From positions 1 to 27,795 of the IMG/VR virus record IMGVR_UViG_2703718828_000002: a stretch of 27,795 nt of DNA; one strand, written 5' to 3'. Positions 136 to 15,403 of the stretch are shown in pieces (the stretch's first letter is position 1; each line of letters starts with the position of its first letter). This DNA is from a virus. Its lineage: Duplodnaviria > Heunggongvirae > Uroviricota > Caudoviricetes. The translations under genes and the position numbers were made by a program. The notes under the pieces were generated by a model. That model worked only from the letters and a program-made list of their open reading frames with translations, did not search any database and had not been told where the DNA came from.

Positions 136-161
136 ATGGCGTGCAATTGCACGCCATTTTT
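136..161 (+). terminator. Rho-independent terminator between convergent genes
   Basis: Perfect 22-nt palindrome ATGGCGTGCAATTGCACGCCAT (136-157) followed by T-run 157-161; lies between the stop of the partial ORF (120) and the stop of the minus-strand MTase (160-162). Confidence 0.5.
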
Positions 162-1191
162 AATTTGAAAGGTGCTTGAGAATACTTTGCCCAATGATCT
201 CGCCTAACCTTACCGGCACTGCATTTCCTATCATTCTTGCTGTTGATGCAATGTCCAAACTAGATTCTTTATCGAAAAATAAATAATCTTTCGGAAAACT
301 TTGCAGTATCGCAGCTTCTCTTAAGGAGATTGCCCTGTTTTGTTCTGGATGACCAAAGCGTCCATTACCAAAACCATAGCATTGTGTGGTTATTGTTGGA
401 CTTGGTTCATTCCATGACATCCTGCCATAAACACTTTTATAAAATTTTCCAGACTCTTTTAAGTGACAAGGTGCTCTCAAGTGTATCGGCCAATCATGCC
501 AATCGCCTCCGGGCTTTGAAGCTTTAATACGCTCCATGTTCAAAGGGCTAAGAGTAGAACATTTATGAAGTGGATCGCGCTTGTCACATTCTCCAGCATT
601 TAATGATGGAAGGCCAAATATTGCATCCTTAACAGTTACGTAATTTTTTTTGTTATGAGTCGGATCAATTATAGAGATAGGACCTAATTTGGATGCTAAT
701 AATACTAAACGTTTACGAGTTTGCGGCATTCCATAATCTGGGCAAAAAACGATCTTATAATAAACATTATATCCATGGCCTTCAAGGTTGTTTATGAAAT
801 CTTTAAATATGTCTTGTGTCATCAAGCCTGGTACATTCTCCATCGTGACGATAGAGGGTTGCGTTTCATCAATTAACCGCGAAAAAGAATATAATAATGC
901 CCATTTGTCATCTTTTTTCTTGTTTTTAGTTCTTCCATATGTTGAAAACGGCTGACAAGGAGCGCATCCAGCTAAAATCGTTACATCTGAATCTTTAAAA
1001 TGACTGAGGATCTGTTCACCCTTCAAAACGGTTATGTCTTGATTGATAAAAACTGCATTATTATTAAATTCAAACGCAAAACGGCAGGTTTCTTCAATAT
1101 CATAACCTGCTACAACATCAATGCCTGATTGCTTTAACCCATGGGTTAGCCCCCCGGCTCCGCAAAATAAATCTACTGCTTTGATTTTCAA
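160..1191 (-). CDS. DNA cytosine-5 methyltransferase (Dcm-like m5C MTase), copy 1
   Basis: 343-aa translation carries m5C-MTase motifs: DLFCGAGG (motif I), GCAPCQPFS (catalytic PCQ, motif IV), ENV (motif VI), QTRKR (motif VIII), GNAVPV (motif X). Start codon is TTG (rc of 1189-1191). AT-rich relative to the integrase next to it. Confidence 0.9.
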   Translation of the reverse strand: MKIKAVDLFCGAGGLTHGLKQSGIDVVAGYDIEETCRFAFEFNNNAVFINQDITVLKGEQILSHFKDSDVTILAGCAPCQPFSTYGRTKNKKKDDKWALLYSFSRLIDETQPSIVTMENVPGLMTQDIFKDFINNLEGHGYNVYYKIVFCPDYGMPQTRKRLVLLASKLGPISIIDPTHNKKNYVTVKDAIFGLPSLNAGECDKRDPLHKCSTLSPLNMERIKASKPGGDWHDWPIHLRAPCHLKESGKFYKSVYGRMSWNEPSPTITTQCYGFGNGRFGHPEQNRAISLREAAILQSFPKDYLFFDKESSLDIASTARMIGNAVPVRLGEIIGQSILKHLSN

Positions 1192-1263: not shown

Positions 1264-2457
1264 TCACATCATTTCTTTGACTTTGCTTCCCCACCATTTC
1301 ATAACTACAGCACGTTGTTCAAGGTATGTGCTACGGTTGTAGGCTCTACGTACCTCATTTTTGTCTGAATGAGCTAAGCAAGCCTCAATAACATCTGCGT
1401 TAAAGCAAGCTTCATTCATCGCGGTACTTGCTATAGAACGTAAACCATGCGCAACGAGCTTTCCATTATACCCAATACGTTTCAGTGCAGCATTCGCCGT
1501 TTGGCTATTCATCGGTTGCTTAGGATCATTCCTACTAGGGAATACGTGTACACGATGGGCACTGATAGGTTTCATTACTTCAAGTACCTCAAGTGCTTGA
1601 GGTGACAAAGGAACAATGTGCTCGCGTTTTGCCTTCATCCGCTCTGCTGGAATTGTCCATAGCTTAGCCTCAAAATCTATCTCTGACCATTGAGTACCGG
1701 AAGCTTCTGAGGGCCGTACGATAGTCAGTAGTTGCCATTCAATCAGGCAGCGAGTCGGGACTGATAGGTTTGACATAACCAATGATCGCATTAACTTTGG
1801 CAGTTCTTCTGGCCGCAATGTCGGCATGTTTTGCTTTTTAGGTTTCTCAAATGCCATACCAACACCTGATGCTGGGTTGCCATCAATCAAGCCGGTGTTA
1901 ACCGCATAAATCATTATCTCGTTGATGCGCTGCACCAGTCGACGTACAGTCTCAAGCGCCCCACGAGCTTTGATTGGCTCAAGAGCTTCAACCAGTGTAC
2001 GGGCTTTGATTTGCTGAACGGGGATCTCACCGATGGCAGGGAATACATCTTTCTCCAGTGAGCGCCAAATGTCTTTTGCGTAATCAGGAGTAACGCTTTT
2101 GCTTTTGAGCTGGAACCAGTTAGCGGCTACTGTTGAAAAAATACTGTCCAGTGCGATTTGCTGCTGTTCCTCTGCAACTTCAGCTTGAATTTGTGGGTCG
2201 ATTCCGTTGGCTAATAAAGCAAGGTAATTCGCTCTTAACCCTCGGGCATCAGCAAGCGAAAGGGCGGGGAAAGCACCTAGCCCCATCATTGTCCGTTGTT
2301 TTGTCGCCGGACGTTGATAACGAAAGCGCCAGAGCTTTTTTCCACTGGTTTTCACTATCAGGAAAAGGCCATTGCCATCATGCAGCGTTAGATCCTTCTC
2401 TAACGCTTTAGCGCGAAGAACTTCGGTATTGGTCAGGGGGCGTGTTGTCCGTGCCAC
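1264..2457 (-). CDS. int: P4/CP4-57-type tyrosine integrase (ssrA-targeting IntA-like)
   Basis: 397-aa translation beginning MARTTRPLTNTEVLRAK...LWRFRYQRP resembles P4-family integrases as recalled; GTG start (rc of 2455-2457) preceded by AAGGAG 8 nt upstream; the ssrA 3-prime core lies about 185 nt upstream on the same strand. Confidence 0.85.
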   Translation of the reverse strand: MARTTRPLTNTEVLRAKALEKDLTLHDGNGLFLIVKTSGKKLWRFRYQRPATKQRTMMGLGAFPALSLADARGLRANYLALLANGIDPQIQAEVAEEQQQIALDSIFSTVAANWFQLKSKSVTPDYAKDIWRSLEKDVFPAIGEIPVQQIKARTLVEALEPIKARGALETVRRLVQRINEIMIYAVNTGLIDGNPASGVGMAFEKPKKQNMPTLRPEELPKLMRSLVMSNLSVPTRCLIEWQLLTIVRPSEASGTQWSEIDFEAKLWTIPAERMKAKREHIVPLSPQALEVLEVMKPISAHRVHVFPSRNDPKQPMNSQTANAALKRIGYNGKLVAHGLRSIASTAMNEACFNADVIEACLAHSDKNEVRRAYNRSTYLEQRAVVMKWWGSKVKEMM

Positions 2458-2526: not shown

Positions 2527-2574
2527 CAATAATCACCGGATTTAGCCAGATATTCTCGGACAAGGACAGACACA

Positions 2575-2591
2575 AAAAAGCCCGTAGGGCT
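2575..2591 (-). terminator. Rho-independent terminator downstream of the ssrA 3-prime fragment
   Basis: Minus strand reads GCCCTACGGGC followed by TTTTTT (rc of 2575-2591); about 50 nt downstream of the CCA end of the ssrA fragment. Confidence 0.45.
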
Positions 2592-2641
2592 TGTGCCGTG
2601 CGGGCTTTCTGTACTTCACCGGACGTATCCGGATCATCATT

Positions 2642-2686
2642 TGGTGGAGCTGGCGGGAGTTGAACCCGCGTCCGAAATTCCTACAT
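2642..2686 (-). other. ssrA: Attachment-site core: terminal 45 nt of the tmRNA (ssrA) gene, not an intact gene
   Basis: Plus strand TGGTGGAGCTGGCGGGAGTTGAACCCGCGTCCGAAATTCCTACAT is the reverse complement of the recalled enterobacterial tmRNA 3-prime end (...AUGUAGGAAUUUCGGACGCGGGUUCAACUCCCGCCAGCUCCACCA). The match stops at 2686 and the flanking sequence is unrelated AT-rich DNA. Confidence 0.8.
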
Positions 2687-2818
2687 ACCATTTTTACTAT
2701 AACAAAAACATGAACTTATGTTTAAAATCAGTATGTTAGTATTATTTTGTGTTTGTCTGTTTTACGCATTTTTAATGCTCTGCCGCCAAAATGCCGCCAC
2801 TGGTTTTGCTTGGGAGAC

Positions 2819-4339
2819 TTATTCAGGCTTTAATTTATTGATAATAGAATCTACCATTTTAATGCCTGCCTCATTGACTATGACTGAATTGACTACTCTA
2901 TCAAAATAGTCTTCTATATGGTGGGAAAATAGGAAAGCAGCACTTGATGGTTTTTTGTTCTTTTCAACTGCAGATTGCAAGACTTCATGAGGCGGAATTT
3001 TAAACCTTTTGCATGATGCAATGAGATATTCAAACTCTTCAAATGATAGACAAAAAATATTCTCTGTAGGGATATGATAGTTATGTTTAAACTTGTCATA
3101 TATCTTATTCATCTCATCTTTAGCATAAGTATTAGCTAGGATACTACCATTGCCTAAGAAAAGGTTTTTATATGTAATGCAAATGATATATGAGTTAGCC
3201 CTGAATGGAGCTATTATTCGCTCATTAGAGTATATTTCTCGATTAACTTCGTGAGATTGTTCGATTGCTTTTAATACCGATTTCTTTATTTTTCCTGCAA
3301 TATCCTCAGGGCGTAATGTTACCATGCCTTTTTGGTGTATCTCAACGCCTTTAGCATCAATGAAAATATTTGCCTCAGTATGTGGAATGAAATAATCAAC
3401 TACTTTATTATCTTTAGGTAGTCGTTCTTTAAGGTATTTTTCGTTATGAAAATCAATTTCGCTTTCTTTTAGTATTAATTCCAGTGCATTTTCAAATACA
3501 TTTCCAAAGCTATCCATGAACTTCTCGGCATCAGTTCTTCTTAAAAGATCATATATGAACGTCTGTATGCTTGTTGAAGTCAGTTGTGTGTGTATCTGAA
3601 AATACTCTGAACCTTTTTTTATTAATGGTTTTTCAAGGAAAGGTGATGATGAGTAGTATTCAAGCAAAGGTTTATCATAGGTTTTTGATTTGCAAAATGT
3701 AGATAGTTCATTGTAATTTATTGATATTGCATCAAGAAATTTCTCAATGGTATTTCTAGGAATGATGTCAAATAATATAGTAAATGTATCTACATTCATT
3801 TTTCTCACGGGATGCTCTTCTGTTATGTGAGTTATTAATATGTAAGATAGCTTAAGAAAGTCTTCTATAGATACATTCGTGATAGTAAAAAAACTTGTCT
3901 TTATTTTATGGTTTTTTTCAAGTTCTGAAAATAGAAAGACTTGTCTGCTAATTGTGTTTAGAGCGTCAATTTTCTGGTAGATTCCTTGTTGGTATAGATT
4001 ATTTCTAATGAAGAAATGCATGCCATTCTTCCTCTCAAGACCGATAGGAATAATGTTCAAGGTTTCATAAGTTTTTTGGAAGAGTTTTATTGCTTGATTT
4101 TTATCGAGGATTTTGAATTTTTTATTCTTGCCAGTTACTGACGCAGACCACTTTAGACATAAATTAACAATCCAAGGCATGTGTCGTAACATGTGGATAT
4201 TATCTTCAAATTTTTGTAAGTTATATTGCATACAGAATTCGATAAATAAATCAGGGGAATAACCTTGGATTTCTGAACGAATAGCATCCATTCTTAACTT
4301 TGCAACCGCATCAGATTGAATATCTAATTTTTGAATCAC
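2819..4339 (-). CDS. Hypothetical 506-aa protein; AT-rich cargo gene between the att core and the prophage integrase
   Basis: Long uninterrupted ORF with markedly lower GC than int; GTG start (rc of 4337-4339) with GGAG 9 nt upstream overlapping the int stop; no family recognised by eye. A weak D...DxK pattern (VVDYFIPHTEANIFIDAKG) is the only motif-like element noted. Confidence 0.65.
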   Translation of the reverse strand: MIQKLDIQSDAVAKLRMDAIRSEIQGYSPDLFIEFCMQYNLQKFEDNIHMLRHMPWIVNLCLKWSASVTGKNKKFKILDKNQAIKLFQKTYETLNIIPIGLERKNGMHFFIRNNLYQQGIYQKIDALNTISRQVFLFSELEKNHKIKTSFFTITNVSIEDFLKLSYILITHITEEHPVRKMNVDTFTILFDIIPRNTIEKFLDAISINYNELSTFCKSKTYDKPLLEYYSSSPFLEKPLIKKGSEYFQIHTQLTSTSIQTFIYDLLRRTDAEKFMDSFGNVFENALELILKESEIDFHNEKYLKERLPKDNKVVDYFIPHTEANIFIDAKGVEIHQKGMVTLRPEDIAGKIKKSVLKAIEQSHEVNREIYSNERIIAPFRANSYIICITYKNLFLGNGSILANTYAKDEMNKIYDKFKHNYHIPTENIFCLSFEEFEYLIASCKRFKIPPHEVLQSAVEKNKKPSSAAFLFSHHIEDYFDRVVNSVIVNEAGIKMVDSIINKLKPE

Positions 4340-4351
4340 AATAGGTCTCCA

Positions 4352-5365
4352 CTACAAATTATAAAGAGGATTTTTAGTCACCGCGTCTTCAAGGTGATCG
4401 GGCGAAAAGTGGGCGTAAATCATGGTCATTTTTATATCGGCATGACCCAAAATATCACGCAGTACCAGTATGTTTCCGCCGTTCATCATAAAGTGACTGG
4501 CGAATGTATGGCGAAGCACGTGGGTGCATTGGCCCTCCGGTAGGTCAATACCGGCCCGCTTTACTGCCCGCTCAAAGGCTTTTCTGCATGGCGTGAATAA
4601 CTTTCCTCTGTTTTTGGGGAGTTCATCATACAGATCCTGAGATATCGGCACAGTACGGTTTTTCTTGCCTTTTGTTTTTGTATAAGTAATTCGGTATTTC
4701 GATATTTGATGGCCCTGCAGATTTTCGGCTTCACTCCACCGTGCGCCAGTAGCCAGGCATATTTTTGCAATCATTAGTAAGCTAGGGCTTTGAGATTCAG
4801 CACATGCCGCCAACAGGCGCTTGATTTCGTCCGTGGAAAGAAAAGCCAGCTCACCTTCGGCAATTTTGAAGGTCGGAAGTCCTGCCAGCGGGTTTGGTGC
4901 TGACCAGTGTCCTAGTTTTTTTAATGTACCGAACACAGATGATAGATTGCGCTGTTCAAGGTTTACCGTGCGGGGCTTAACGGGCGACATCAGCGTGCCA
5001 TCTTCATTTCGCACTTCACCTTTTAGCCGTGCTTCGCGGTATTTCGTAAAGTCACCGGCAGTCAGCTCTGAAGCGATGGGATCGCCCAGACCATTACAGA
5101 TAATTCCAAGTTTCGCCATGAGTCGCTTGGGGTCTGCGAGTGTTTGACCATACAGGGAATACCACAGCTCAATTAATTCTGATAGGTGTCGCCGATCTTC
5201 CTTTTCTCCCAGCCAAGGTTTCTTGTTTACCTCGTCCATGGTGAAATTCTCAAACGCAATGGCTTCGCCTTTCGTCGCAAATTGTTTGCGTACGCGTTTG
5301 CCATCTCGCCCGTTTGGGTAGCATTCACATAACCACTTTCCGTTCGGCTGTTTTCTGATGGTCAT
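4352..5365 (-). CDS. int: P2/186-family tyrosine integrase
   Basis: 337-aa translation with C-terminal tyrosine-recombinase signature region (...HVLRHTFASHFMMNGGNILVLRDILGHADIKMTMIYAHF) consistent with R..HxxR..Y catalytic residues; ATG at rc 5363-5365 one nt after the repressor stop. Confidence 0.9.
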   Translation of the reverse strand: MTIRKQPNGKWLCECYPNGRDGKRVRKQFATKGEAIAFENFTMDEVNKKPWLGEKEDRRHLSELIELWYSLYGQTLADPKRLMAKLGIICNGLGDPIASELTAGDFTKYREARLKGEVRNEDGTLMSPVKPRTVNLEQRNLSSVFGTLKKLGHWSAPNPLAGLPTFKIAEGELAFLSTDEIKRLLAACAESQSPSLLMIAKICLATGARWSEAENLQGHQISKYRITYTKTKGKKNRTVPISQDLYDELPKNRGKLFTPCRKAFERAVKRAGIDLPEGQCTHVLRHTFASHFMMNGGNILVLRDILGHADIKMTMIYAHFSPDHLEDAVTKNPLYNL

Positions 5366-5366
5366 A

Positions 5367-5999
5367 TCAAAGGCTCTTAATGATTTTCAGTGCGCGGCCT
5401 ATTACCTCAATGTCATCCAGTTCGCACTCAAACGATGAATCATCCTGATGCACTACTAATCTGTTTCCCGGGAGTCGTGTCAATTTTACAATGCTTTTTA
5501 TCCCGTCGATGTCCACTAACCACGTACCATTTACTGGTGGTGTTTGGTTGCGATCTATTAAATAAGAATCACCAGAAGTAGTCACCAGCAGCAGGTTGCT
5601 TGAGTCTGAGGGGAGTATGCTGCTATCAATGATTGCTTTTCCAGCATCGATCAGCAAACCTCCGTTGAGAGTTGCCTTGTCAATTTCAGGAGATACAAGC
5701 TCCGAAAGAGGTTTAACTTTGCTAGAGTTCACGGAATTGATATTTTTTTTAGGGTCAATGTTTGAACCTGGATCGCCCTGTCCGGTAGTTAGCCACAGTA
5801 AAGAAACTCCTGTTTCCAAAGCGCACTGAATCACCCATTCTGCAGGAAAACTATCTCTTAAGTATCTGTTTGCCATAGTGCTTTTTGATGCGCCCAAGTG
5901 ATCGCAAAGTTGCTGTCTGGACTTGAAATCATAGGCTGCCATTAGCCTATGGATAGCCTCTCTTCCCCCTGTATTCTCGCCAGCTTTTACTTGTATCAT
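5367..5999 (-). CDS. cI: CI-type immunity repressor (phage 186 CI-like)
   Basis: 210-aa protein on the int strand, divergent from the apl/cII operon; motifs CALETG..LLWL.TGQG and LWLVDIDG...LTRLPG...FECELDDI match the 186 CI layout as recalled. Confidence 0.75.
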   Translation of the reverse strand: MIQVKAGENTGGREAIHRLMAAYDFKSRQQLCDHLGASKSTMANRYLRDSFPAEWVIQCALETGVSLLWLTTGQGDPGSNIDPKKNINSVNSSKVKPLSELVSPEIDKATLNGGLLIDAGKAIIDSSILPSDSSNLLLVTTSGDSYLIDRNQTPPVNGTWLVDIDGIKSIVKLTRLPGNRLVVHQDDSSFECELDDIEVIGRALKIIKSL

Positions 6000-6004
6000 T
6001 TTTT

Positions 6005-6065
6005 AATCCTGTTGACGTATCAAATATTGGATCGTAGTATCTTGGTGTATCAAATATTGAATCAA
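6005..6065 (+). promoter_or_regulatory. Immunity switch region: candidate rightward promoter with duplicated operator-like 13-mers
   Basis: TTGACG (6012-6017), 17-nt spacer, TAGTAT (6035-6040); the 13-mer GTATCAAATATTG occurs twice (6017-6029 and 6047-6059) overlapping the promoter; lies between divergent cI and apl. Confidence 0.4.
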
Positions 6066-6118: not shown

Positions 6119-6367
6119 ATGAGCAACGACATTTCAATTCGTGTACCAAAAGTGATGGCGACACCAGCTGAGTTCGCGGAATGGGAAGGCCGCTCTCGCG
6201 GTTCGGTATATCAAATGATTCATAATGGTAAACTCGCTAAATTCTTGGAAAGAAAAGAAAAACCGAAAGACAGAGTATGTATACGTTACCTTGAGTACAA
6301 AAAGGAACAAGTCAGGAAAAACATGGGCCAATCCAATTTCAACTTTAATGTCATCGTTGGTGACTAA
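6119..6367 (+). CDS. apl: Apl/Cox-like small DNA-binding regulator/excisionase
   Basis: 82-aa first gene of the rightward early operon, divergent from cI. Assignment is by position and size in the 186-type layout. Confidence 0.55.
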   Translation: MSNDISIRVPKVMATPAEFAEWEGRSRGSVYQMIHNGKLAKFLERKEKPKDRVCIRYLEYKKEQVRKNMGQSNFNFNVIVGD

Positions 6368-7723: not shown

Positions 7724-7950
7724 TGGCTGATGCAATGGATCTTGTACAGCAGCGCGTTGAAGAAGAACGCCAGCGCCATATCCGTGCTGCCCGTGCCAAA
7801 ACGCCGGGCGTGTCCCGCGTGCTTTGCATTGAGTGTGAAGCGCCAATTCCGCCAGCACGCCGCCGCGCCATTCCAGGTGTGCAGCTTTGCATTACCTGTC
7901 AGGAAATCGCAGAACTGAAAGGCAAACATTACAACGGAGGTGCTGTATGA
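7723..7950 (+). CDS. DksA/TraR-type C4 zinc-finger protein
   Basis: 75 aa with CIECE...17 residues...CITCQ (Cys-x2-Cys...Cys-x2-Cys) at the C-terminus. Confidence 0.7.
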   Translation: MADAMDLVQQRVEEERQRHIRAARAKTPGVSRVLCIECEAPIPPARRRAIPGVQLCITCQEIAELKGKHYNGGAV

Positions 7951-8804
7951 GCACCATCCTGAAATGGGCGGGAAATAAAACCGCCATTATGTCCGAACTG
8001 AAAAAACACCTTCCTGCTGGCCCGCGACTGGTTGAACCTTTCGCGGGTTCCTGTGCTGTGATGATGGAGACGGATTACCCCAGCTATCTGGTTGCGGATA
8101 TTAATCCTGATTTAATCAACCTCTATAAAAAGGTTGCCGCTGATTGTGAATCGTTTATATCTCGCGCCAGAGTTTTATTTGAGATCGCAAACAGGGAGGT
8201 GGCTTATTACAACATAAGGCAGGAGTTTAATTACTCCACTGAAATTACTGATTTCATGAAAGCGGTATATTTCCTGTATCTCAATCGTCACGGTTACCGT
8301 GGTTTATGTCGCTATAACAAGAGCGGGCATTTCAACATTCCCTACGGTAATTATAAAAATCCGTATTTCCCTGAAAAAGAAATTCGCGCATTTGCAGAAA
8401 AAGCCCAGCGGGCAACGTTTATCTGCGCCAGCTTTGATGAAACGCTGGCGATGTTGAAGGCGGGGGATGTGGTGTATTGCGATCCGCCGTATGACGGCAC
8501 GTTTTCCGGTTATCACACTGACGGCTTCACTGAAGATGACCAGTATCACCTGGCATCCGTTCTTGAACATCGGTCATCAGAAGGACATCCGGTCATTGTT
8601 TCTAACAGTGACACATCCCTGATCCGTTCGCTGTATCGCAATTTTACTCACCACTACATCAAGGCAAAACGCAACATCGGTGTGGCAGCTGGCGAGGGTA
8701 AATCAGCAACAGAAATCATTGCTGTTTCCGGGCCGCGCTGCTGGGTGGGATTTGATTATTCGCGTGGCATGGACAGTTCTGCCGTGTACGGAGTACGTGC
8801 ATGA
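7947..8804 (+). CDS. dam: DNA adenine methyltransferase (Dam-like, N6-adenine)
   Basis: N-terminal LKWAGNK AdoMet-binding motif and catalytic DPPY (VYCDPPYDG). ATG 7947 with GGAGG 6 nt upstream, overlapping the previous stop (ATGA); the track start at 7887 has no RBS. Confidence 0.9.
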
Positions 8805-11215
8805 GTCATGCCGATATGAACAACTGCTGCGGCTTTAACGAGGCTACCGCAGCATTCTCATGGAACAGCCCGAAAAAGGCCATTAACCCTTATCTGGACC
8901 CGGCGGAAGTTGCGCCGGTTTCTGCGCTTTCAAACCTGATCACTCTGTACGCTGCCGATAACGAGCAGGAACAACTGCGCCGTGAGGCACTGAGTGATCA
9001 GGTCTGGGAGCGTTATTTCTTTAATGAATCCCGTGATCCTGTCCAGCGCGAAATGGAGCAGGATAAGCTAATTAGCCGGGCAAAGCTGGCGCATGAGCAG
9101 CAGCGTTTTAATCCAGACATGGTCATTCTGGCGGATGTCAACGCCCAGCCTTCCCATATCAGCAAGCCGCTGATGCAACGTATTAAATACTTCAGCAACC
9201 TGGGCAGGCCAAAGGCTTATTCCCGCTATTTGCGTGAGACGATTAAGCCATGCTTGGAACGACTGGAGCATGTACGCGACAGCCAGCTATCTGCATCTTT
9301 TCGTTTTATGGCAAGCCATGAAGGGCTGGACGGTCTGCTGATCCTGCCTGAAATGAGTCAGGATCAGGTGAAACGCCTGTCCACCCTTGTCGCTGCGCAT
9401 ATGAGCATGTGTCTTGATGCCGCTTGTGGTGATTTGTACGCCTCCGATGATGTTAAGCCGGAAGAAATCCGCAAGACATGGGAAAAGGTGGCAGCAGAAA
9501 CCCTGCGACTGGATGTCATACCGCCTGCGTTTGAGCAACTCCGCCGGAAAAGAAACCGCCGCAAACCTGTGCCCTATGAACTCATTCCGGGTTCGCTGGC
9601 GCGTATGCTGTGCGCCGACTGGTGGTATCGGAAATTATGGAAGATGCGTTGCGAATGGCGGGAAGAGCAGTTGCGTGCTGTCTGTCTGGTCAGCAAAAAA
9701 GCATCTCCCTATGTCAGCTATGAAGCCGTGATGCATAAACGTGAGCAGCGCCGTAAGTCGCTGGAGTTTTTCCGTTCTCATGAACTGGTGAACGAAGACG
9801 GCGACACGCTGGACATGGAGGATGTGGTAAACGCCAGCAGCAGCAACCCTGCGCATCGCCGCAATGAGATGATGGCCTGTGTTAAAGGCCTGGAGCTTAT
9901 CGCGGAAATGCGCGGTGACTGCGCCGTTTTCTACACCATCACCTGTCCGTCACGTTTCCATTCCACGCTAAATAACGGCAGGCCCAACCCGACCTGGACA
10001 AATGCGACGGTAAGACAAAGCAGTGATTATCTGGTTGGCATGTTTGCTGCATTTCGTAAGGCGATGCACAAAGCCGGATTGCGCTGGTATGGCGTGCGGG
10101 TGGCTGAGCCGCATCATGACGGTACAGTTCACTGGCACCTGTTGTGTTTTATGCGCAAAAAAGATCGCCGCGCCATTACTGCTTTGTTGCGTAAGTTTGC
10201 CATTCGTGAAGACCGCGAGGAGCTGGGGAATAACACGGGACCACGCTTTAAGTCTGAGTTGATTAACCCGCGCAAAGGAACGCCGACAAGCTACATCGCG
10301 AAATATATCAGTAAGAACATTGACGGGCGTGGTCTGGCTGGCGAGATCAGCAAGGAAACGGGTAAATCCCTGCGTGATAACGCTGAATACGTGAATGCCT
10401 GGGCGTCTCTGCATCGTGTTCAGCAATTCCGCTTCTTTGGCATTCCGGGGCGTCAGGCTTACCGTGAACTGCGATTGCTGGCTGGTCAGGCGGCAAGGCA
10501 ACAGGGTGACAAAAAAGCAGGTGCGCCGGTACTGGATAACCCGCGCCTTGATGCCATCCTGGCTGCTGCTGATGCTGGTTGTTTTGCCACCTACATCATG
10601 AAGCAGGGCGGCGTACTGGTTCCCCGCAAATATCACCTCATCAGAACCGCTTATGAAATCAACGAAGAGCCAACCGCCTATGGCGATCACGGTATTCGTA
10701 TTTATGGCATCTGGTCACCCATTGCAGAGGGCAAGATCTGCACTCATGCAGTGAAGTGGAAAATGGTTCGTAAGGCCGTTGACGTTCAGGAGGCGGCAGC
10801 CGACCAGGGCGCTTGCGCCCCTTGGACTCGTGGCAATAACTGTCCCCTTGCTGAAAATTTGTACCAACAAGGGAAAGACAAATCAGCTGATGGGGATACC
10901 AGAACGGATATTACCCGTATGGATGACAAGGAGTTGCACGATTACCTGCACAGTATGAACAAAAAAGAACGCCGGGAACTGGCTGCAAGATTACGCCTGG
11001 TGAAACCGAAACGGCGTAGAGACTACAAACAGCGAATTACAGACCATCAACGACAGCAGCTCGTCTATGAACTGAAGTCCAGAGGATTTGATGGCAGCGA
11101 GAAAGAGGTCGATTTACTCCTTCGCGGCGGCAGCATTCCGTCAGGAGCAGGCCTGCGTGTCTTCTATCGGAACCAGCGTTTGCAGGAAGATGATAAGTGG
11201 CGGAACCTGTATTAA
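8801..11215 (+). CDS. A: Replication initiation protein A (rolling-circle nickase, P2 gpA family)
   Basis: 804 aa with HUH-type motif [10 protein letters not shown] and paired tyrosines YIAKYISK; ATGA overlap with the dam stop; size and position match P2/186 gene A. Confidence 0.9.
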
Positions 11216-11307
11216 TTACGCGGGTTAACAATTCGTGCTCTTAATAATACCAGGCATATCAGGCTGATGAACGTAAAAAAACGTTTTACATCAGTAAGAT
11301 TATTGTA

Positions 11308-11327
11308 TACTGTAAATATAAACAGTG
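11308..11327 (+). promoter_or_regulatory. LexA (SOS) box
   Basis: TACTGTAAATATAAACAGTG contains a perfect CTGT-N8-ACAG with AT-rich spacer (core 11310-11325), about 40 nt upstream of the small ORF at 11369. Confidence 0.6.
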
Positions 11328-11368
11328 GTTATGCATACAGTATTGCGTGTGGTGTCATAGGAGGAAAG

Positions 11369-11557
11369 ATGCAGGACTATTTTTTGGAGTCTTTGAAGCT
11401 CCAGCGCATTGATTTTTTTCTTAAGCTTGTAGCGGCCAGTGAGTGTAGTGATGAAGAGAAGGGGCTGGCTCTGCAGTGGGTTTCTGAATTGACTGATGAA
11501 CTCATGGCAAAAATCAGAACCCACGAATACAACCGCTCAATGGATGTCATCAGTTGA
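11369..11557 (+). CDS. Small hypothetical protein, first gene of the LexA-boxed module
   Basis: ATG 11369 with AGGAGGA RBS (11359-11365); 62 aa; its TGA stop (11555-11557) is embedded in the RBS of the next gene. Confidence 0.5.
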   Translation: MQDYFLESLKLQRIDFFLKLVAASECSDEEKGLALQWVSELTDELMAKIRTHEYNRSMDVIS

Positions 11558-11567
11558 GGTGACTTTT

Positions 11568-11801
11568 ATGCGCATTGAAATAATGATCGATAAAGAGCAG
11601 AAGATTAGCCAGTCTACCCTGGACTCTCTTGAATCCGAGCTTTACCGCAATCTGAGCCCCCTGTATCCCAAAGCGGTAATTCGTATCCGTAAAGGTAGCG
11701 CCAATGGTGTTGAACTGAGCGGGTTAAAACTGGATGAAGACAAAAAGCGAGTGATAGAAATCATGCAGCAGGTCTGGGAGGACGATAGTTGGTTACATTA
11801 G
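11568..11801 (+). CDS. DinI-family protein (SOS-inducible, possible Tum-like antirepressor component)
   Basis: 77 aa MRIEIMIDKEQ...IRIRKGSANGVELSGLKLDEDKKRVIEIMQQVWEDDSWLH aligns by eye with E. coli DinI (MRIEVTIAK...ISEILQETWESADDWF); RBS GAGGTGA 11556-11562. Confidence 0.7.
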   Translation: MRIEIMIDKEQKISQSTLDSLESELYRNLSPLYPKAVIRIRKGSANGVELSGLKLDEDKKRVIEIMQQVWEDDSWLH

Positions 11802-11842
11802 CGAACAGAATTTAGCCAAGCGATAAGTCATTCATCCAAGGG

Positions 11843-11865
11843 GGCGGCGTTTGCCGCACTTTTAT
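11843..11865 (+). terminator. Candidate terminator after the DinI-like gene
   Basis: GGCGGCG-TTT-GCCGC hairpin followed by ACTTTTAT; marks the boundary between GC-rich phage DNA and the AT-rich cargo block. Confidence 0.35.
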
Positions 11866-11998
11866 GGATGTTAGAACTAGTATTTTAGATCTTTATTTTA
11901 TTTAACATTTTGATTGTTATGCATTTTATTTGTTTTTGTTACTTTTGTCTGTAAAAATTTTGTAGGGTAAAATCATCATCGAAGTCGAGTTAAAATGA

Positions 11999-12007
11999 TG
12001 CTACAAT
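11999..12007 (+). promoter_or_regulatory. Candidate extended -10 promoter for MTase copy 2
   Basis: TGcTACAAT at 11999-12007, about 27 nt upstream of the TTG start; RBS AGGGAGGA at 12021-12028. Confidence 0.3.
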
Positions 12008-12034
12008 CCTTCAAGTATAGAGGGAGGACTTATT

Positions 12035-13075
12035 TTGATTAAAGTTGTTGATCTTTTTTGCGGAGCAGGTGGCTTAACTCATGGTTTGCAACGAGCAGGG
12101 TTGAATGTGGTTGCAGGCTATGATATTGATGCTACATGTCGGTATGCTTATGAAAAAAATAACAATGCTTTATTTGTGCAAAAAAGCGTCACTGAACTTG
12201 ATGAAGGGGAAATAAGTAAGCATTTTAAGGATGCATCAATTAAAGTTTTAGCTGGATGCGCTCCATGCCAGCCATTTTCTAGTTATACAAATACTGATAA
12301 ATCAGTAAAAAAAATAAAAGACCATCGATGGTCTTTATTGTATAGCTTTGCTAAGCAAATTCAATTATGTGCTCCAGATATAGTCACAATGGAGAATGTT
12401 CCAAGAGTTATTAACCACAAAGTTTTTAAAGATTTTGTGAAGACTTTAAAGTCTGAAGGGTATTTCGTTTGGTATGATACTGTATTTTGTCCTGATTATG
12501 GAATGGCCCAAAGCCGATCTAGATTAGTGTTATTAGCGTCCAAGTTTGGCGAGATAAAACTAATCCCGCCAACACATGATAAAAATAACTATAACACTGT
12601 ACGTAGCGTTATTGGTGGATTGCCTCCTATTGATGCTGGATCGAGTGATGAGAAAGACAGACTTCATTATGCTGCATCTTTATCACCATTAAATATGGAG
12701 CGAATAAAACATTCTAAGCCAGGTGGAACATGGAAAGATTGGCCTGAGTACTTACGGGCGTCATGCCACACCAAAGAATCAGGATCTTCTTACACTGCAG
12801 TTTATGGAAGAATGAGCTGGGATAAACTTGGCTCTACAATTACAACACAATGTATAGGTTTTGGTAATGGTCGATTTGGTCATCCAGAACAAAATAGAGC
12901 TATTAGCCTAAGAGAGGCAGCTTTGCTTCAATCTTTTCCTCTAACTTATGAATTTTGGCCAGCTGAAGTAAAAGTTGAACTCAGGAATGTTGCACGACTG
13001 ATTGGTAATGCTGTGCCGGTGAGGCTCGGTGAAGTTGTTGGGCAAAGTATTATTGAACACCTTAAAAGAAAATAA
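12035..13075 (+). CDS. DNA cytosine-5 methyltransferase (Dcm-like m5C MTase), copy 2, paralogous to copy 1
   Basis: 346 aa with DLFCGAGG, GCAPCQPFS, ENV, QSRSR and GNAVPV motifs; collinear by eye with the 160..1191 protein along its whole length; TTG start with strong SD; AT-rich. Confidence 0.9.
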   Translation: MIKVVDLFCGAGGLTHGLQRAGLNVVAGYDIDATCRYAYEKNNNALFVQKSVTELDEGEISKHFKDASIKVLAGCAPCQPFSSYTNTDKSVKKIKDHRWSLLYSFAKQIQLCAPDIVTMENVPRVINHKVFKDFVKTLKSEGYFVWYDTVFCPDYGMAQSRSRLVLLASKFGEIKLIPPTHDKNNYNTVRSVIGGLPPIDAGSSDEKDRLHYAASLSPLNMERIKHSKPGGTWKDWPEYLRASCHTKESGSSYTAVYGRMSWDKLGSTITTQCIGFGNGRFGHPEQNRAISLREAALLQSFPLTYEFWPAEVKVELRNVARLIGNAVPVRLGEVVGQSIIEHLKRK

Positions 13076-13099
13076 AAAGGGCGAATCGCCCTTTTTTTT
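13074..13099. terminator. Bidirectional terminator shared by the convergent MTase and GHKL genes
   Basis: A-run, GGGCG-AAT-CGCCC hairpin, T8 run; overlaps both stop codons (13073-13075 and 13098-13100). Confidence 0.5.
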
Positions 13100-15056
13100 A
13101 GATACCATCAACAATTTTCATTATTCGTGCAGCATCATCTTTTTTGCTCTGATACTCAGAGTATGCTTGTTTGGATTGTATTATAAGATCGCTATATGTT
13201 AATACCTTTGCATTTATAGATTGTAGCTGTGAGCGAATATAATTATCTCCACTTCCGTCATAACCTTTGCCGACAAGAAAAACTACATCTATCGGTGGTA
13301 TTTTTCCGGCAGGGCAACTATTTGGGTTGTTTCTAAACCACTGCTCTGTGGCAACAACATATTTCCTTCCTTGACCTACTAATGCCAAAATATCAGGATA
13401 TACATTTGGTCTTTTCATTTCAATGATGACGTGTTTACCTGAAACGGTTTTGAAGGCTATATCAATTCTTGCACCACTTTCAGCGTCAGGGTTAACCTCT
13501 TTCAATTCCTTAGTCAGGGTTTGTTCCATAACTGTAGAACCAGTAACCCTCTCCCATGATGGGTCTAACAGCCATAAGTGGTCATAAAGATATTTTTGTA
13601 CAGCCTTCTCTAACTCATTGTCATCGGTGATTTTTTGAAATTTCTCAATAACTTTCAATCGCTGTGATGTAATCTCATAAAAAAGGCTTGCCTCAATATC
13701 ATTTACAGAAGCAAAAACCTCCCTAAAATGTTCTGAGTTTAAATCGCTAATTTTATCTAAAGCCTCAAGGTTATCTTTTATTCTTAATCTTTCAAAAGCA
13801 AGAACTGTATTTTTTAATACGGTTTTTTTTGCAATTTTCTGGTTTTCTTCATCTCCAGAAAATCTAAATGTGTTAATTTTGCCTAGTAATTTTTCGGCGC
13901 TGTTTCTTTCATGTTTTGACATGGAATCAAGCCAATCACTTACAGCAGGTGAAGTTTTTTTAACCTCGCTAAGACCTTTTGCTCTTCGCCATTCATCCCA
14001 TTCTTTATCTATTTTTTGTAATGTCCGTTCTAAGAAACCCTTAATCACAGGATAGCGTGGATCATTCTGCTGTAATTTCTGTCGGGATGAGGTTGCCATG
14101 TCAGGTTTTTCATTTTCATCTAAAAAATCTGCGACAAGTTCCCCTACTAAATAATTTGTAAAAACCTTTGCGCTTCCGAATTCAAGCAATATATCTTCTT
14201 CAAATACCCGCCCATTTGATATTACGGTTATCGTGTTGTTAGATATTTCAGGGTCTTTTTTAAGTTGAGATGGTTTCTCAACACTTCCTACATAACCAGT
14301 AATGAAATAATCTACGCCTTCAAAAGATAATTTGTTATCTAGAAGGCTTTTTTTAGAAAGATTTTTGCAAGATTTTACTCTTGCGGGATCTGAACTACCA
14401 AACTCCCATAAAAATTCAAGATCTGAAAGGAAGTCTCTATCTTCAGTAGTTATCTCAGTGTCATTGATTTTAACTATAAAATCATGACCAGGACCAATTA
14501 TGCTAAACCGTCTGGCAAGTCTTTTTCTTAGATAGGTCTGAGTTCTATCAATGGATTTTTTTAAATCCATAAGAACTATTGTCGTCCCTATACTAAAGTC
14601 TTTCGGAACATTAATAATATTTGCAACATATTGTTTACTGCTTTTTATACAGCGTTGCAATTCATCAACGTCAACTTCAAATCCCTGAGGCGTTTGGCCA
14701 ATTTTGTGAGAAAATACTTGGATTTTGTTAGCTAATGAAAACATTGCTAATTTACCAATGCCTTTTCTACCCATGACTTGTCGTTGTAATCCATCACTTT
14801 TATACCTTCCACTTTCTCTTCTGGCATATCCAACTTTTAGGAATTTATTAATGATGTCATCTTTTGACATTCCATGTCCATCATCTTTAATTATTACCTT
14901 TTCATTTTCAACATCTAGAGTGATGTCTACATTTTTAGCATCCGCATCCCAAGCATTTGAGATTATTTCAGTTAGAACAGCTGGTGTGTTAGAGTAAAGA
15001 CTCATACCTAAATGATTCAATACATTCAGGTCTATTTTAATTTCGAAATCGGACAT
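13098..15056 (-). CDS. GHKL-superfamily ATPase (MORC/MutL/Hsp90-like Bergerat fold) with C-terminal PD-(D/E)xK-like motif; candidate effector partner of MTase copy 2
   Basis: 652 aa. N-terminus carries N-box EIISNAWDADA, G1 box DDGHGM and G2 box GRKGIGKLAMFS; C-terminus carries RIDIAF...12 residues...IIEMKRP (D...ExK). ATG at rc 15054-15056 with AAGGA RBS; AT-rich. Confidence 0.8.
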   Translation of the reverse strand: MSDFEIKIDLNVLNHLGMSLYSNTPAVLTEIISNAWDADAKNVDITLDVENEKVIIKDDGHGMSKDDIINKFLKVGYARRESGRYKSDGLQRQVMGRKGIGKLAMFSLANKIQVFSHKIGQTPQGFEVDVDELQRCIKSSKQYVANIINVPKDFSIGTTIVLMDLKKSIDRTQTYLRKRLARRFSIIGPGHDFIVKINDTEITTEDRDFLSDLEFLWEFGSSDPARVKSCKNLSKKSLLDNKLSFEGVDYFITGYVGSVEKPSQLKKDPEISNNTITVISNGRVFEEDILLEFGSAKVFTNYLVGELVADFLDENEKPDMATSSRQKLQQNDPRYPVIKGFLERTLQKIDKEWDEWRRAKGLSEVKKTSPAVSDWLDSMSKHERNSAEKLLGKINTFRFSGDEENQKIAKKTVLKNTVLAFERLRIKDNLEALDKISDLNSEHFREVFASVNDIEASLFYEITSQRLKVIEKFQKITDDNELEKAVQKYLYDHLWLLDPSWERVTGSTVMEQTLTKELKEVNPDAESGARIDIAFKTVSGKHVIIEMKRPNVYPDILALVGQGRKYVVATEQWFRNNPNSCPAGKIPPIDVVFLVGKGYDGSGDNYIRSQLQSINAKVLTYSDLIIQSKQAYSEYQSKKDDAARIMKIVDGI

Positions 15057-15121
15057 ATCCTTTCCTTGCTGAAGCTTGTAGGCAGAGCTTAAGCCTACTC
15101 ATGTGAACAAAATCCCTCGAA

Positions 15122-15150
15122 ACTAAACATTGATTTTGACTAAATGTCAA
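15122..15150 (-). promoter_or_regulatory. Candidate promoter for the GHKL gene overlapping a 15-nt palindrome
   Basis: Minus strand TTGACA (rc 15145-15150), 17-nt spacer, TTTAGT (rc 15122-15127); TTGACTAAATGTCAA (15136-15150) is a perfect 5-5 inverted repeat that includes the -35. Confidence 0.35.
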
Positions 15151-15296
15151 ATGTAGATGTTGCCTTGTGTAATGCATATCTATGCTGCATGAATACGCAT
15201 GATCTCTTAAGGATCGCTTTTGTTGAAGCACGCCAGAATTGGCGGGCTTTTGCTTATGTCATGCATGTGCATGAAAACTACTACATGAAGCGGGCA

Positions 15297-15315
15297 GGCG
15301 TGGCGGGGATACGAG
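15297..15315. other. Candidate cos site (cohesive-end sequence of P2/186 type)
   Basis: GGCGTGGCGGGGATACGAG matches the first 13 nt of the 19-nt cohesive end recalled for P2/186 (GGCG[A/T]GGCGGGGAAAGCA...); located just beyond the portal gene end, as cos is in P2. Confidence 0.45.
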
Positions 15316-15403
15316 CGCGCGCAGCGGGGTAAAATGGCCAAAATCCGGCGCAGCCTCTGGCCCGCTGGCGGCCTCATTTTGCGTAGGGGGGATAAATGTC
15401 AGG

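Follow-up and report, generated by a model that had tools for sequence, protein, structure and literature searches.

Concerning anti-phage systems that consist of a single protein, GAPS1 (also written GapS1) was defined by Mahata et al. (bioRxiv 10.1101/2023.03.28.534373) as one protein encoded in a Gamma-Mobile-Trio (GMT) island of Vibrio parahaemolyticus, with a C-terminal PD-(D/E)xK phosphodiesterase domain in which the substitutions D313A and K328A result in loss of defence. Phage T7 escapers from this founder protein were reported to carry mutations in capsid gene 10, and its combination with the capsid protein gp10 alone caused growth arrest with viability being kept. In the same study, three cloned homologs from E. 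coli, one of them EJP5250929.1, protected against coliphages; the native E. coli homolog was needed for the protection of a clinical isolate, in which growth arrest rather than lysis was observed at high multiplicity of infection; and approximately 78% of the GAPS1 homologs identified were in K. pneumoniae. For the K. pneumoniae protein, a conference report states that it protects against many phages, while our literature search for later work on the GAPS1 mechanism retrieved only the original preprint, genome surveys and one conference abstract. The current study concerns a member of this family, gapS1, in a 27,795-nucleotide stretch of viral DNA (IMG/VR record IMGVR_UViG_2703718828_000002, positions 1 to 27,795; hereafter the window), where it is located between the integrase gene (int) and the attachment site (att) of a P2-like prophage.

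The second body of work that is relevant to this locus consists of surveys of defence hotspots in P2-like prophages (PMC9122126; NAR 2026, PMC13586616), in which the int-att region represents a minor hotspot holding approximately 3% of P2 defence systems, the classical hotspots including the gpA-gpQ locus with old/tin (Rousset et al. 2022, PMC9122126). GAPS1 is not named in the main text of these surveys, and Mahata et al. never mention prophages; the founder resides in a Gamma-Mobile-Trio island, whereas the ortholog in the window resides in a prophage. The window resembles the surveyed P2-like hotspots in that low-GC, variable cargo is embedded among conserved phage genes, and its gpA-gpQ hotspot is filled as well. 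Taken as a whole, the locus is best explained as gapS1, encoding a single-gene anti-phage system of the GAPS1/GapS1 type with a presumably capsid-triggered PD-(D/E)xK nuclease, carried as int-att cargo and most likely expressed within a cI-int operon, a reading to which we assign a probability of roughly 0.88.

According to the open reading frame (ORF) listing, the interval 2687-4351 holds one long ORF, on the minus strand:

2819..4339, minus strand: gapS1 coding sequence, 506 amino acids (aa), GTG start codon and TAA stop codon, matching NF047931.

The observed open frame of 510 codons compares with 153 codons as the longest in 1000 shuffles of the interval, and the probability of encountering 506 stop-free codons by chance in the gene's own AT-rich composition is approximately 1e-18; the ORF is real and not a chance frame. 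Its GC content is 31.4% (GC3 27.6%), whereas int has 47.9% and the prophage portion of the window 49.5%; in this respect the first-pass annotation, an earlier reading made from the nucleotide sequence without database searches, had correctly pointed to a long ORF of low GC content at this position. The same annotation had described the gene as an orphan of no recognisable family, a description that can no longer be upheld, since the encoded protein matches the NCBIfam model NF047931 (antiphage_GapS1) with an E-value of 3.1e-128 and 428.5 bits, the curated cut-off being 320, and residues 20-474 align to the entire model (positions 1-455 of 455). The protein is 100% identical to a cluster that has 285 members from Klebsiella, E. 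coli and Enterobacter and bears the UniRef/NCBI name 'GapS1 family protein', and the PGAP/RefSeq label of a 99.9% identical E. coli copy is gapS1 (WP_000615103.1). The accompanying conjecture that the gene serves in anti-phage defence was well founded, as the protein belongs to an experimentally founded defence family; the homology detected is to this family and not to any structural or integration accessory protein of phages.

The breadth of the family is apparent from an exhaustive HMMER scan, in which 1542 representatives of 50%-identity clusters were recovered at E<=1e-3; among the best 150 of these, most are of approximately 500 aa (490-530) and collinear from end to end, over about positions 5-504. 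One of the experimentally tested E. coli homologs, EJP5250929.1 (P0063, cluster 3), aligns with the window protein over 504 aa at 58% identity (75% positives). When int, gapS1 and att were used together as a query, at least 80% coverage was obtained in 15 complete E. coli genomes, the 12 that were listed being 99.8-100% identical. Furthermore, 12 deposited Klebsiella phage records, Kp4845-2 among them, match at 99.9% and terminate exactly at window position 2687; since these records take in gapS1, the gene lies inside the mobilised element. No partner gene is present between int and att in the ORF listing, in agreement with a system composed of a single protein. It should be stated that none of this is new to the literature or to the databases: the gene and its family, their defensive role, the outline of the mechanism, the frequency of the family in Klebsiella and the hotspot that P2-like prophages have between int and att have all been published or annotated already.

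Several resources gave no comparable signal. Pfam returned only a sub-threshold match of the protein to TPD (14.6 bits against a threshold of 27), which was dismissed as noise; PADLOC-DB v2.0.0 (2023) returned 0 families at E<=1, this library evidently being without a GapS1 model; PHROGs returned only the 'unknown function' families phrog_14259 and phrog_34771; and a sequence search of the PDB yielded nothing meaningful (E >0.6), there being no solved GapS1 structure. It is owing to the silence of these four resources that the gene had looked orphan-like.

The C-terminal half of the protein contains the peptide VVDYFIPHTEANIFIDAKG, which the first-pass annotation had reported and had regarded as a weak D...DxK pattern:

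3347..3403, minus strand: codons of the PD-(D/E)xK motif, residues 313-331 VVDYFIPHTEANIFIDAKG, with D315 at 3395-3397, D328 at 3356-3358 and K330 at 3350-3352.

While the peptide is indeed present, the pattern is anything but weak, as it constitutes the invariant catalytic motif of the GapS1 family: in an alignment of 47 family members, extending down to 22% identity, D315 and K330 are each conserved in 47 of 47 sequences and position 328 is occupied by D in 35 and by E in 12. Residues E283, E300 and Q361 are likewise invariant or nearly so across these 47 proteins. The spacing of 15 residues between D315 and K330 (pattern D-x12-(D/E)-x-K) equals that between D313 and K328 of the founder, with which the window protein also shares its organisation as one protein of approximately 500 aa with a C-terminal PD-(D/E)xK domain. 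A profile search with alignment A1 against a database of 5.8 billion proteins did not reach the Vibrio founder and added one weak match, and the founder residues D313 and K328 are for that reason matched to the window protein by spacing only, not by direct alignment. On the strength of this conservation, D315, D328 and K330 are the predicted catalytic residues of a C-terminal PD-(D/E)xK phosphodiesterase/nuclease domain.

With the catalytic and near-invariant residues all kept, the notion that gapS1 might be a decaying, non-functional relic is scarcely credible. Nothing specific speaks in its favour apart from the many partial copies in the database clusters, which are mostly short contigs labelled partial, and it is contradicted both by the intact 506-aa frame in 31%-GC DNA, with the chance probability of approximately 1e-18 given above, and by the distribution of the 285-member cluster, defined at 90% identity, across Klebsiella, E. 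coli and Enterobacter.

A confident AlphaFold2 model of the protein, built with 24 homologs (pLDDT 87.9, pTM 0.88), places D315 just before a strand formed by residues 316-318 and D328 and K330 within a strand formed by residues 325-330, with flanking helices at 271-293 and 344-371. The best structural matches of this model are to restriction-endonuclease folds, comprising DNA-cutting restriction and nicking endonucleases and Upx; those named include N.BspD6I, the R.BspD6I small subunit, HindIII, NucS and Bse634I, followed at a lower level by the Avs3 nuclease, Can2 and McrC. The model thus assigns to the C-terminal domain a restriction-endonuclease-like fold, as expected of a GapS1 family member. 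In common with Type IIS and nicking endonucleases (N.BspD6I, the R.BspD6I small subunit, HindIII, Bse634I), the predicted domain possesses an alpha/beta core and a D...(D/E)xK active site. GapS1 differs from them in having no cognate methyltransferase and in its identity of only 8-15%, and, by analogy with the founder, it would be switched on by a phage protein rather than being constitutively active. Upx (PDB 9wuf) is, like GapS1, a single-polypeptide anti-phage nuclease, although it comprises 1212 aa and two PD-(D/E)xK domains where GapS1 comprises 506 aa and one; the title of the Upx paper points to recognition of the phage terminase, whereas the trigger of the GapS1 founder is the capsid protein. 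At 10-11% identity, Upx represents a functional analogue at the level of the fold and not a member of the family.

These structural likenesses bear on the question of whether GapS1 might act as a direct, restriction-like or abortive nuclease that cuts phage DNA or kills the cell, or might respond to a trigger other than the capsid, instead of imposing a reversible dormancy upon capsid sensing. The closest structures are those of enzymes that cut DNA and of Upx, a defence nuclease that by the title of its paper recognises terminase; Mahata et al. themselves allow that GAPS1 may eliminate phage (10.1101/2023.03.28.534373); and the window ortholog is distant in sequence from the founder. Such an activity nevertheless appears quite unlikely given that the founder, when combined with capsid gp10 alone, arrests growth while the cells retain viability, that the native E. 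coli homolog likewise causes arrest and not lysis at high multiplicity of infection, and that neither a methyltransferase partner nor a DNA-recognition module is evident beside gapS1.

For the capsid-sensing system that is preferred here, the course of events would be as follows. GapS1 would be idle until the major capsid protein of a superinfecting phage is sensed, the N-terminal helical half of the protein being the presumed sensor of phage proteins; by analogy with the tested members of the family, capsid sensing would cause the nuclease domain to stop cell growth, resulting in dormancy rather than lysis, and the infection would thereby be aborted.

The genetic context of gapS1 is defined by the following features:

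4352..5365, minus strand: P2/186-type tyrosine integrase gene (int), 337 aa, Pfam Int_N 1.3e-28 and Phage_integrase 2.4e-24; an integrase in related phages.
2800..2818, minus strand: cargo trailer of 19 nt, from the gapS1 stop codon to the conserved attP arm.
2687..2799, minus strand: attP arm of approximately 113 nt, beginning with the direct repeat TGGCGGCA-TTT-TGGCGGCA.
2642..2686, minus strand: att core, formed by the last ~45 nt of ssrA (tmRNA) up to its 3'-terminal CCA; the window holds no more of this gene.

The placement of the gene between int (4352..5365, minus strand) and the att core (3' end of ssrA, 2642..~2686, minus strand) is as the first-pass annotation had it. The Rfam tmRNA match is confident over the 3' end only, GGTTCAACTCCCGCCAGCTCCACCA occurs as an exact single match in the window, and ARAGORN detected no complete tmRNA in the window; the att copy is consequently the int-proximal one of a prophage that has ssrA as its integration site, a site also known to be used by Fels-2 and SopE-phi. 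An Rfam match to the small RNA IsrM at 2574..2651 was rejected: it scores 34.6 bits where the gathering score is 376, and it covers only the two ends of the model, which coincide here with the terminus of ssrA and with its terminator hairpin.

The borders of the cargo were deduced from alignment A2 of six sequences, namely the window, Fels-2, SEN8, Cartapus, an E. coli GapS1 prophage and Klebsiella phage ST437-OXA245phi4.1. In this alignment, homology downstream of the cargo starts at 2799 with TGGCGGCA-TTT-TGGCGGCA and continues into the ssrA core. Since it begins at this position whatever the cargo, the cassette corresponds to 4351..2800 and is composed of the gene, a 12-nt leader and the 19-nt trailer. 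The repeat TGGCGGCA-TTT-TGGCGGCA at 2780-2799 marks the exact downstream edge of the cargo slot, and similar TGGCGGCA/TGGCGACA repeats are located across the core in SEN8 and Cartapus; TGGCGGCA-type repeats are probably the arm-type binding sites of Int in this phage group.

While cI, int and the attP arm are common to the related phages, the content of the slot differs. In Fels-2 and SEN8, relatives that lack the gene, int is adjacent to att, with attP approximately 118 bp after int in Fels-2 and just a 147-bp hypothetical ORF between int and the arm in SEN8. The Escherichia phage Cartapus carries in the slot a 402-aa RES-domain gene that starts 10 nt past int; this cargo shares position, strand, close spacing and attP arm with gapS1 and encodes an unrelated protein ('putative RES protein, NAD+ binding domain'), and it shows only that the int-att slot is exchangeable. 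Klebsiella phage ST437-OXA245phi4.1 has a 516-aa gene in the slot with an ATGA overlap with int, which is likened to the P0022 GapS1 clade by length and host alone. The order cI-int-GapS1 recurs in a 78%-identical clade of E. coli and Salmonella and in a 50%-identical Salmonella clade, so that with the Klebsiella relatives it is conserved in three genera, and a 31%-identical Photobacterium homolog is situated in a non-phage island beside AAA_15/AAA_21 ATPase genes.

From the conserved flanks and their differing content it follows that gapS1 is an exchangeable cargo cassette in the minor P2 defence hotspot already published; in this 186/Fels-2-like (Peduoviridae) prophage, which is integrated in ssrA, the cassette occupies precisely the space from the int stop codon to the attP arm. 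The foreign GC content and the variability of the cargo between conserved flanks in relatives thereby substantiate the earlier view of a horizontally acquired moron at the prophage end. Compared with the P2 hotspot surveys (PMC9122126, PMC13586616), both edges of the cassette are here resolved to the base, one being the int stop codon and the other the repeat at 2799. The same comparisons render it very improbable that the product of gapS1 serves the phage itself, as an accessory to integration and excision or as a nuclease of recombination or replication. Such a role might be imagined from the nuclease fold and from the position of the gene beside int and attP; yet Fels-2 and SEN8, which share int and the attP arm and are functional phages, do without the gene, an unrelated RES-domain protein takes its place in Cartapus, homologs exist outside prophages (the Photobacterium island and Vibrio GMT islands), and the GC content of the gene does not match that of the backbone.

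With respect to expression, three further elements need to be considered:

5367..5999, minus strand: 186-type CI repressor gene (cI), 210 aa, Pfam Phage_CI_repr 6e-31 and Phage_CI_C 4.8e-28; the presumed first gene of a leftward, lysogenic cI-int-gapS1 operon.
4340..4351, minus strand: int-gapS1 spacer of 12 nt, with the Shine-Dalgarno sequence GGAG at 4347-4350, 7 nt before GTG.
2578..2592, minus strand: ssrA terminator hairpin with T-run, from a consensus scan, the first terminator-like site downstream of cI-int-gapS1 on this strand.

On the minus strand the junction reads TAG-T-GGAG-ACCTATT-GTG, with the int stop codon at 4354-4352, GGAG at 4350-4347 and GTG at 4339-4337. The GTG start with its GGAG, as originally proposed, is therefore present (GTG at 4339, spacer of 7 nt), but the proposed overlap of GGAG with the int stop codon is not, one T being interposed, and the term 'translationally coupled' was an over-statement in view of the 12-nt gap and of the gene's own Shine-Dalgarno sequence. 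As gapS1 has its own ribosome-binding site, coupling to int is no more than a possibility. The 78%-identical E. coli clade exhibits a junction of the same design (TAA-TGGAG-7 nt-GTG, 12-nt gap), in the 50%-identical Salmonella clade the gap is 25 nt, with GGGAG and a start at TTG, and a stop/start overlap (ATGA) is found only in Klebsiella phage ST437-OXA245phi4.1. At 4337-4354, int and gapS1 are in one frame, TAG and four sense codons apart (TAA and four in the 78%-identical E. coli clade); an Int-GapS1 read-through fusion was considered and rejected, the shared frame being regarded as incidental to the 12-nt gap, since the gap of the Salmonella clade is 25 nt long and out of frame.

Phage 186 has int downstream of cI, and leftward transcription in this phage is monitored with an int::lacZ fusion. 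The consensus scan detected no terminator-like site on the minus strand from cI-int-gapS1 up to the ssrA terminator, and the arrangement of the genes makes it plausible that gapS1 is co-transcribed with cI and int as the last gene of a leftward operon. In a lysogen, the leftward cI-int operon would most likely carry gapS1 in this last position, and translation would proceed from its own GGAG/GTG, 12 nt past the int stop codon. Two promoter-like sites that are face to face and overlapping, TTGATA-17-AATGAT at 6023..5995 (minus strand) and TTGACG-17-TAGTAT at 6012..6040 (plus strand), are located between cI and an apl-like gene (6119..6367, plus strand) and resemble the convergent pL/pR of phage 186.

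The alternative, in which gapS1 is driven by a promoter of its own within the 3' end of int or within the cassette, independently of cI-int, and its closeness to int is a consequence of the insertion site, is considered unlikely, albeit less so than the direct nuclease discussed above. Horizontally moved cassettes often carry their own signals, and gapS1 does possess its own GGAG and GTG with no overlap with int; a weak sigma-70-like match is situated within int at 4514..4485 (minus strand), and the Salmonella clade has its 25-nt gap with a different leader. However, the 12-nt leader is too short for a promoter within the cassette, the promoter-like matches reach only 9/12 and occur at chance frequency, and three independent GapS1 clades as well as the RES cargo start 0-25 nt past the int stop codon on the same strand, a regularity that fits dependence on read-through from int.

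A number of points weigh against the interpretation of the locus as a capsid-triggered GapS1 system within a cI-int operon. Pfam, PADLOC-DB 2023 and the sequences of the PDB give nothing, so that membership of the family rests on one curated hidden Markov model in combination with homology and a conserved motif. The nearest protein for which experimental data exist is only 58% identical to the window protein, and the Vibrio founder and the E. coli homologs display only 24-29% identity to one another (Mahata et al., bioRxiv 10.1101/2023.03.28.534373). Even for the founder, the same authors left the substrate of the nuclease open (10.1101/2023.03.28.534373), and the specificity of the trigger may vary among GapS1 clades. 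Finally, 13 promoter-like matches were counted in the region as compared to 11.3 +/- 3.3 in shuffles, which is chance frequency, and the scan is thus no evidence for or against an internal promoter.

Beyond gapS1, a second low-GC (34-39%) cargo block extends over 11250-15400, in the classical gpA-gpQ defence hotspot of P2, and contains:

11496..11801, plus strand: DinI-like gene.
12035..13075, plus strand: C5 cytosine methyltransferase gene.
13098..15056, minus strand: gene for a restriction enzyme of the BbrUII/HgiDII family with a GHKL ATPase domain, 652 aa; NF050001, 752 bits against a cut-off of 550.

By virtue of the methyltransferase and restriction enzyme in this block, the prophage carries a type II restriction-modification (RM) system besides GapS1; E. 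coli 873.10 harbours a near-identical cI-int-gapS1 prophage without the RM block. Directly past the ssrA att fragment, and outside the prophage, a P4/CP4-57-type integrase gene is located at 1264..2457 (minus strand), followed at 160..1191 (minus strand) by a C5 DNA methyltransferase gene that matches the PADLOC DrmMII and type II methyltransferase models (E ~1e-101). At ssrA, the region 160-2457 represents a second integrative island arranged in tandem, the rest of which extends beyond the window, and is possibly another defence island. In E. coli GCA_011468455.1 (locus positions 7885-11838), a P4-like satellite (integrase, Psu, Ogr/Delta) comes after a GapS1 prophage at ssrA; the satellite's own hotspot encodes a 913-aa Mrr_cat-nSTAND1 protein, and this constitutes another case of tandem, defence-carrying elements at ssrA.

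Based on the operon layout and the cassette edges, two propositions can be advanced, which we hold tentatively as possible rather than probable. The first is that GapS1 would be made only under prophage repression and be off at induction, so that the prophage's own capsid would not act as a trigger. The second is that the int-stop and arm-repeat junctions may represent a precise exchange site for defence genes (GapS1 clades and RES) among the 186/Fels-2-like phages of E. coli, Salmonella and Klebsiella. Neither such a regulatory logic nor such a mechanism of cassette exchange was found described for GapS1 in the literature examined.

The value of these findings is practical, for annotation and for phage therapy, their value as a discovery being small. 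With GapS1 and a type II RM system, one prophage equips its host with no fewer than two defences, which bears on the phage susceptibility of Klebsiella and E. coli strains. The nuclease substrate, the sensor domain and the tolerance of the prophage's own capsid are matters for the GapS1 family as a whole rather than for this locus. With its base-level cassette edges and the recurrent layout of cI, int and cargo, the locus offers a clean natural system for studying the regulation of prophage-borne defences, and the same system suits the question of how a capsid-sensing nuclease avoids the capsid of its own prophage, perhaps through its placement in the lysogenic operon.

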